Source of the DNA: an uncultured Clostridia bacterium
GTDB lineage: Bacteria > Bacillota > Clostridia > TANB77 > CAG-465
NCBI GenBank assembly: GCA_944388575.1
Contig: CALXJF010000005.1
Span: forward strand, 1,495-65,494
Length of the DNA stretch: 64,000 bases
Reading direction: 5' to 3'
Every line of letters begins with the position of its first letter. Position 1 is the stretch's first letter. Below, one piece after another: positions 31,660 to 32,147 of this stretch. The position numbers were made by a program, and so were the translations under genes. Below the pieces are notes generated by a model, which ran no database searches, had not been told where the DNA came from, and saw only the letters and a program-made list of their open reading frames with translations.

Positions 31660-31787
31660 TTTCTCTCCATTTAAAAGTAATACACAATACTTTAATTACT
31701 TTTTACTTTATCATTATATAATAGAAAAAAATAAATGTAAATAATATAGCTTTAGTTAATTTTTATTTCTATAAATAAAAAAGAAAG

Positions 31788-31843
31788 TGTATAATATGGC
31801 GTGCAATTAATTATTTCAATAATCTACACACCATATTATACAC
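31788..31843. repeat. perfect 13-bp inverted repeat (GTGTATAATATGG / CCATATTATACAC) with a 30-bp spacer
   Basis: read directly from the sequence. Confidence 0.6.
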
Positions 31844-32011
31844 TATTATATTTCATCCTTCTAGTTTTACACAAATCTATATTTTTCTTACTAGTGGTCA
31901 GCTACAACAAATAAATATTTATAAAATTTATTTTATATAAAGCGCTAGACGAAATCCTACACTATCGAGACTACCGGTACGGATTATAATAGCCGTTACG
32001 GTAAGAAACTG

Positions 32012-32119
32012 TGGTGTTAGAATAGATATATAGACACAAAATTTTACGAAATCGTGAAAATATGATATAATGATTTTATGTAAAAAAGAAAGAGGTGTCT
32101 ATATATCTATTCTAACACC
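32012..32119. repeat. perfect 26-bp inverted repeat (TGGTGTTAGAATAGATATATAGACAC ... GTGTCTATATATCTATTCTAACACCA) flanking a 56-bp core that contains TGATATAAT
   Basis: read directly; lies between the stop of the ABC exporter operon and the GNAT gene. Confidence 0.7.
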
Positions 32120-32147
32120 ATTAATCCCGATTTTATTTTTATATTCA

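Follow-up and report, generated by a model that had tools for sequence, protein, structure and literature searches.

The 109-bp segment at 32012-32120, in the spacer between an ABC exporter operon and a GNAT acetyltransferase gene, is very probably a non-autonomous derivative (a miniature inverted-repeat element, MITE) of an insertion sequence (IS) of the IS3 family and, on comparison of strains of the same species, it marks the breakpoint of a rearrangement or replacement. Both of its 26-bp arms are copies of the left inverted repeat (IRL) of the IS.

The spacer and its features

The window, by which we mean the whole 64-kb stretch of DNA analyzed, has a GC content of 26%. The genes flanking the spacer are all on the minus strand, and the non-coding gap between the exporter and the GNAT gene (31660-32147) is 488 bp long rather than roughly 390 bp, as the first-pass annotation had put it. 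A promoter-like site for the GNAT gene lies upstream of a Shine-Dalgarno sequence (SD), GGAGAG, and the start codon. The 26-bp repeat, the 13-bp repeat and the GC-rich segment of this spacer had been taken together as one feature, but the three have separate origins. A 28-aa ORF at 32070-32156 was dismissed, given that its start lies inside the -10 box.

A scan for tRNA and tmRNA genes found none, and BLAST analysis of the region against plasmids gave no match. Rfam searches, of the region at E-values up to 10 and of the whole window at gathering scores, returned only noise; the best-scoring models were those of eukaryotic miRNAs and snoRNAs, with 14-22 bits against gathering scores of 40-90. 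The features of the spacer, together with a solo IS end found elsewhere in the window, are collected in Table 1.

Table 1. Coordinates of the features discussed in the text, with strand and basis of assignment.
Feature	Position	Strand	Basis
ABC exporter gene pair	34009-35742 and 32148-34016	-	ORFs
GNAT acetyltransferase gene	31201-31659	-	ORFs; ATG at 31659
Promoter-like site for GNAT gene	31713-31741	-	TTTACA, 17 nt, TATAAT, 11/12 matches; consensus scan only
Predicted intrinsic terminator, with the 13-bp repeat as core	31770-31844	-	Hairpin 31786-31844, then UUUCUUUUUUAUUUAU at 31770-31785
GC-rich flank outside the element	31931-32011	-	27-codon open frame QFLTVTAIIIRTGSLDSVGFRLALYIK, then stop, TAA at 31931-31933; composition
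Left arm of the element, IRL copy (TGGTGTTAGAATAGATATATAGACAC), outer end 32012	32012-32037	+	Identical to IRL of full IS copies
Core of the element, corresponding to the IS orfA 5' region	32038-32094	+	Alignment to L081; promoter scan
Right arm of the element, second, inverted, perfect IRL, outer end 32120	32095-32120	-	Perfect match to left arm
Surviving 5' half-stem of exporter terminator (AAAATCGGGATT)	32123-32134	-	Allele-B contigs; cut in loop by element end
Solo IS end	11184-11232	+	IRL with 1 mismatch and 23 nt of second subfamily, then unrelated sequence

Structure of the 109-bp element

The 26-bp perfect inverted repeat had been placed at 32012-32119 with a core of 56 bp. The repeat is real, but its arms (32012-32037 and 32095-32120) are separated by 57 nt and the element extends to 32120. 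The earlier judgment that such a repeat is beyond chance is borne out: the arm was matched in none of the shuffles of the window, and perfect inverted repeats of at least 20 bp numbered zero in the simulated windows, compared with one in the real window.

The left arm is identical to the IRL in full-length copies of the IS, for example at L081:326-351 and L011:3358-3383. In the core we found a -35 hexamer TTTACG (32043-32048), an extended -10 TGATATAAT (32063-32071) and an SD, AGAGG, at about 32090-32094, with no start codon or ORF following the SD in the core. Positions 1-87 of L081 are 86% identical to 32012-32101 of the window, the core corresponding to IS positions 27-87 at this same level of identity, and the full copies carry the same promoter and SD upstream of an orfA that begins MKTYTEEFKK. 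The first-pass annotation had pointed to a rightward promoter here, with an extended -10 and a -35-like hexamer, and this promoter is indeed present (TTTACG, 17 nt and TATAAT with an upstream TG, 32043-32071); from the alignment it is the predicted orfA promoter of the IS. Judged by these matches, the arms and the core are identical in origin to the IS.

The right arm does not correspond to the IS's own right inverted repeat (IRR), which in the full copies reads GTGTCTAAAAACTTGACCTAAATCCA and matches IRL at 16 of 26 positions. The switch from the core to the inverted IRL takes place at GTGTCTA, directly after the SD. In most of the subfamilies seen, GTGTC(TA) follows the SD, and the same motif also forms the inner edge of the inverted IRL. 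Therefore, with the motif at both sites, a 7-bp microhomology lies exactly at the junction.

The element is short and non-coding (109 bp, no credible ORF) and its ends match those of an autonomous IS, as in a MITE, whereas the target-site duplication that would complete the picture is absent, the flanks being CTG and TTA. No transposase was found in the 64-kb window. Among the candidates offered by the first-pass annotation, a MITE or the empty ends of an IS proved correct for the 26-bp repeat, the arms being the IRL of a full-length IS, and the search for multiple copies that it had proposed was positive: the window has a third arm, and there are at least 116 matches in other genomes.

RUP and Correia elements are examples of MITEs in bacteria. 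Another, MITEPsy1, derives from the insertion sequence ISPsy2 (PMC3189936). Like bacterial MITEs that come from insertion sequences, the element in the window is about 100 bp long, non-coding and intergenic; its terminal inverted repeats equal those of an IS family found alongside it, and it carries a promoter able to read outward. It differs from them in that its two ends are both derived from IRL, which gives a perfect repeat where the ends of the parent agree only in part, and in that neither of the two known IRL/IRL copies shows a target duplication; its mobility is putative.

The parent insertion sequence

To characterize the distribution of the arm, we scanned one genome per species with its first 20 nt. 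This 20-mer occurred in at least 116 stretches from at least 66 assemblies, the hosts being metagenome-assembled genomes (MAGs) of uncultured "Clostridium", "Clostridia" and "Bacilli" from the human, mouse, rabbit and goat gut. Most of the matches listed are at a distance of about 30 nt from the end of a contig, and their arm faces outward, as would be expected of a multi-copy repeat at which short-read assemblies break. Inward of the arm there are a conserved promoter, an SD and then an ORF beginning MKTYTEEFKK or MAKKKSYDEDFKK.

In one assembly, CANPFO01, at least 10 contigs end in the IS left end (L006, L023, L037, L040, L049, L073, L075, L086, L098 and L105), which points to a large expansion of the IS as a main cause of the fragmentation of this assembly. 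Copies of this low-GC IS were also seen in MAGs labelled Bacteroidota or Muribaculaceae (L018, L022 and L065); the cause would be either horizontal transfer or contamination, with short contigs that end in the IS assigned to the wrong bin.

The full copies are 1290-1443 bp long and comprise orfA and orfB, the latter in the -1 frame, between imperfect ends. The product of orfA has an HTH_Tnp_1 domain and that of orfB has the domains PF13276 (HTH_21), PF00665 (rve) and PF13683. Membership of the IS3 family was tested on the full copies L081, L085 and L011, and the NCBIfam model NF033516 (IS3 family transposase) gave scores of 303.5 and 291.6 bits, where the cutoff is 160. In L081, orfA spans 417-692 and orfB spans 704-1555; the -1 frame is open from 641, across an A7 slippery run, ACTAAAAAAAGC, near the end of orfA, which is a predicted frameshift site. 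Perfect 3-bp target duplications (ATC, AAC, ACC, AAT and ATA) were present at five of the ten full copies (L011, L016, L077, L081 and L085) and at none of the other five. Because of these duplications, the ends of the IS are fixed at TGGTG... for IRL and ...ATCCA for IRR, which gives the form 5'-TG...CA-3'.

On domain content and profile scores, the full copies are members of the IS3 family. As in the IS911, IS3, IS2 and IS150 types of this family, the parent has a length of 1.3-1.4 kb, a helix-turn-helix orfA, a -1-frame orfB with a DDE (rve) domain and an A7 run, and it shares the 5'-TG...CA-3' ends, the 3-bp target duplications and the match to NF033516. The window departs from this plan in holding the left end twice, together with the 5' untranslated region, without a transposase. 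The nearest annotated transposases in the plasmid collection, from Clostridium butyricum, C. perfringens and Enterococcus, show 48-50% identity.

The ends of the full copies (e.g. L081:326-1675 and L011:3358-4706) carry promoter-like motifs, with TTGAC(C/A) 8 nt from the tip of IRR and TGTTAGAAT (TGnTAGAAT) 6 nt from the tip of IRL. A circle junction with a 3-bp spacer would bring these together as a near-consensus promoter with 17-nt spacing (TTGACC and TGnTAGAAT). The junction promoter of IS911-type elements is built in the same way, and the sequence of the ends would be compatible with copy-out-paste-in transposition through a circle. A pathway of transposition through figure-of-eight and minicircle forms has been described (PMC3219604). 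We also observed that the GTGTC after the orfA SD is complementary to the inner edge of IRL, and this pairing could sequester the ribosome-binding site in read-through transcripts.

Other decayed copies of the insertion sequence

The arms are highly multi-copy across MAGs and, among the matches listed, there are two IRL/IRL mini-elements and one IRL/IRR mini-element. The second IRL/IRL element is found at L063:948-1054 in an unrelated MAG, with flanks GTG and GAG and no target duplication. The IRL/IRR mini-element, at L074:6547, is 94 bp long and is joined at the same GTGTC(TA) motif. Internally deleted copies of the IS occur in L113 and L014, and there are also solo ends, of which the window has one.

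The window itself contains a third copy of the arm, at 11184-11209, which has no partner; the solo IS end to which it belongs is 96% identical to positions 1-49 of L085. We considered a 21-kb composite transposon, reaching from this end at 11184 to the arm at 32120, both of which are flanked by TTAA. This proposal is unsupported, because the DNA on the left side of 11184 does not correspond to the missing half of the terminator that is interrupted at 32120 and because the duplications made by the IS are 3-bp, not 4-bp. A 102-aa ORF at 11079-11387 was also dismissed, as it has no Pfam family and its frame crosses the IS arm. About 100 nt outside the solo end, at 10992-11090, a hairpin resembling a terminator (AATCAGGAGA...TCTCCTGATTTTT) precedes a second hairpin, GCTCCG-N8-CGGAGC, of very high GC content; this pair has no Rfam match.

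The 13-bp repeat and the GC-rich segment

The 13-bp perfect inverted repeat, previously placed at 31788-31843, is real and starts at 31787 (31787-31799 and 31831-31843). On its own it is not far beyond chance, since Markov simulations expect 0.56 such repeats in a window. Against these 0.56 expected, seven perfect inverted repeats of at least 13 bp with gaps of up to 60 nt are present in the window, mostly at terminator-like positions. Apart from the two in the spacer, they are centered near 10791, 10951, 20136, 43814 and 49729, and the one at 10770-10814 follows an asparagine-synthase-like gene and looks like its terminator.

The hairpin at 31786-31844 that contains the 13-bp repeat has a stem of more than 20 bp and a folding energy of -34 kcal/mol (z = -8.2), and none of 200 shuffles folds as well. 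It is followed by a U-tract, UUUCUUUUUU, read directly from the sequence, and in minus-strand order it comes after the exporter operon and before the promoter-like site of the GNAT gene. On this evidence the 13-bp repeat forms the core of a strong predicted intrinsic terminator of minus-strand transcription and has nothing to do with the IS. The terminator scan had missed it, as it is beyond the stem and loop limits of that scan. With its long AT-rich hairpin and U-tract at the end of a minus-strand unit, it shows no notable difference from the rho-independent terminators of low-GC Firmicutes.

The GC-rich segment noted in the first-pass annotation is unusual for this DNA: an 80-nt window reaches a GC fraction of 0.44 at 31937-32022, compared with a mean of 0.26, and only 0.44% of all 80-nt windows do so. 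The imperfect palindrome described within the segment is present, but its fold does not surpass those of shuffled sequences (z = -0.9). A minus-strand frame is open for 27 codons, from the edge of the element to a TAA about 75 nt before the terminator, with the end RTGSLDSVGFRLALYIK. Where other GC-rich islands of the window were inspected, they proved to be coding. Our best guess is that the GC-rich flank may be the truncated 3' end of a gene that was cut by the IS. The 27-codon frame had no homologue in the fetched loci, the plasmid collection or a collection of 5.8 billion proteins (searched with an X-padded query), and the segment has no relatives in the approximately 1.3 Mb of fetched loci. 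Elsewhere in the window, at 37924-38067 on the plus strand, a GC-rich island in an intergenic-looking gap is a 47-aa Cys/Gly-rich ORF (MMDERCGCGCGCNNGCGCGCNNGLFGGGNCCCIWIILIIIVLCCCCC) with a hydrophobic tail, which we take to resemble the tiny YjcZ-like sporulation proteins of Firmicutes.

Strain alleles and the breakpoint

We compared the window with metagenome contigs of the same species, in which the exporter is 99% identical. Two alleles were found. Allele A, with the same 488-bp spacer and the element, is carried by the window and by L002, L201, L205, L207 and L211. Allele B, carried by L202, L203, L204, L206 and L212, has an intact exporter terminator, followed by unrelated sequence and a different gene. 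This terminator, a hairpin AAAATCGGGATT-AATTAA-AATCTCGATTTTTTTT of -11.7 kcal/mol, is a textbook example of the rho-independent type. The alleles are identical up to 32120/32121, which is the outer end of the right arm and falls in the loop of the terminator, and they have nothing in common beyond this point. The locus is polymorphic among strains, with its breakpoint at this position.

The other half of the exporter terminator is found neither beside the left arm nor anywhere else in the window, and the DNA downstream of the exporter in allele B is also absent from the window. The absence of a target duplication excludes a simple insertion and makes the element the mark of a rearrangement breakpoint. 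On comparison of the alleles, its two flanks have different origins. Sister species, whose exporters are 83-85% identical, have different genes on both sides. A search for the empty site through 80 metagenome relatives of the GNAT gene was uninformative, as none of these exceeds 73% identity or has the exporter upstream. Four of the allele-B contigs, all independent of one another (L203, L204, L206 and L212), stop 365-387 nt past the exporter, at a gene beginning MESKERKNKKGISL, which suggests that another repeat or strain-variable region lies just beyond.

Discussion

The history of the element that we propose is a reconstruction, in which the order of events, the mechanism of deletion and the effects on transcription are what we infer. 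An IS end would have landed in the loop of the terminator of the ABC exporter operon. A later illegitimate or IS-mediated event would have led to the loss of the transposase genes and joined the end to DNA from elsewhere, namely the GC-rich flank, the further terminator and the GNAT block. The junction could have come from a deletion between GTGTCTA repeats in a pair of inverted IS copies, with use of the motif after the SD of one copy and that at the inner edge of IRL in the second, inverted copy. Two identical IRL ends are not expected from a plain internal deletion, as IRR differs from IRL at 10 of 26 positions. This history would explain both the absence of a target duplication and the divergence of the strains at exactly this point.

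In its present state the element encodes nothing, and to move it would need OrfAB from a full-length copy at another site in the genome. The exporter transcripts of allele A, which have lost their own terminator, probably run on for about 300 nt, through the 26-bp hairpin, to the terminator at 31770-31844, and antisense transcription into the 3' end of the exporter could start from the IS promoter that has been kept. These effects on transcription are likely incidental; there is no sign of selection for them, because strains of the same species exist without the element.

It is also possible, if rather unlikely, that the IRL/IRL form represents a live MITE family mobilized in trans, of which a member was inserted here as a unit rather than formed in place as a relic, its flank being changed later by recombination with another copy. 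Such a family would fit the recurrence of the same architecture at L063:948-1054, in a MAG that is not related, where the 26-bp arms are again perfect, the junction is again at GTGTCTA and the core, unlike the arms, has diverged, and it would fit the perfect conservation of the arms across dozens of species. However, only two IRL/IRL elements are present among the matches listed, both without a target duplication (CTG/TTA and GTG/GAG), and the conserved microhomology could yield the same junction repeatedly. We give very little credence to a broader version, in which an active, promoter-carrying IRL/IRL MITE family of uncultured low-GC gut bacteria is mobilized by the IS3-family element, itself very widespread, and is kept here for rewiring the 3' end of the exporter, through antisense transcription and replacement of the terminator, with its arms arising from recurrent microhomology-guided collapse of inverted IS pairs. 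A function at this locus could also have come about by co-option of the element as a regulator of the exporter, either as an antisense RNA or as a 26-bp RNA hairpin that stabilizes or terminates the mRNA. The intact promoter (TTTACG, 17 nt, TGnTATAAT) faces the exporter, a minus-strand transcript would form a hairpin of -41.7 kcal/mol, the element has replaced the native terminator, and the allele occurs in at least six independent assemblies. Yet descent from the IS accounts for every part of the element, other strains of the species manage without it, and the loop of the hairpin is 57 nt long and its U-tract poor, so that co-option seems very improbable to us.

Small RNAs have also to be considered for the GC-rich segment (31931-32005), which, alone or with the repeats, might be a structured small RNA or a riboswitch. 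Its locally high GC content in an AT-rich spacer, the imperfect palindrome and the strong terminator about 75 nt downstream on the minus strand would agree with this reading, which we nevertheless hold to be highly unlikely: there is no Rfam match even at E-values up to 10 and no tRNA, the fold does not stand out from shuffles (z = -0.9), no related sequence exists in the approximately 1.3 Mb of fetched loci, and a frame is open across the segment, in keeping with the coding nature of the other GC-rich islands inspected. More generally, the regulatory or antisense RNA that the first-pass annotation had listed as a candidate finds no support, with no Rfam match and no significant fold, and neither does a protein-binding array, since no array is present. 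As many assemblies break at the arm, a multi-copy repeat, and as three contigs (L001, L004 and L207) end inside the element, one might suspect a chimeric join of contigs at a repeated IS end. Against such an artefact, four independent assemblies, each from a different sample (L002, L201, L205 and L211), read through one and the same 488-bp junction as the window does, which makes this explanation exceedingly improbable. The reading that we prefer is that of a non-autonomous IS derivative left at a rearrangement breakpoint.

The main value of this result is practical, in that an odd spacer is explained and need not be mistaken for a regulatory RNA. It also brings to light an abundant and apparently unnamed IS3-family element whose ends fragment many assemblies of gut MAGs (at least 66 assemblies, with at least 10 contig ends in one MAG), and it locates the rearrangement breakpoint that separates the strains to a single nucleotide, in the loop of a terminator. 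For specialists in mobile DNA, the architecture of two left ends with a conserved GTGTCTA at the junction is a small curiosity concerning the formation of mini-elements. Current understanding is unchanged by these findings: the element would be an ordinary IS relic, and the region a scar of mobile DNA rather than a new regulatory device.
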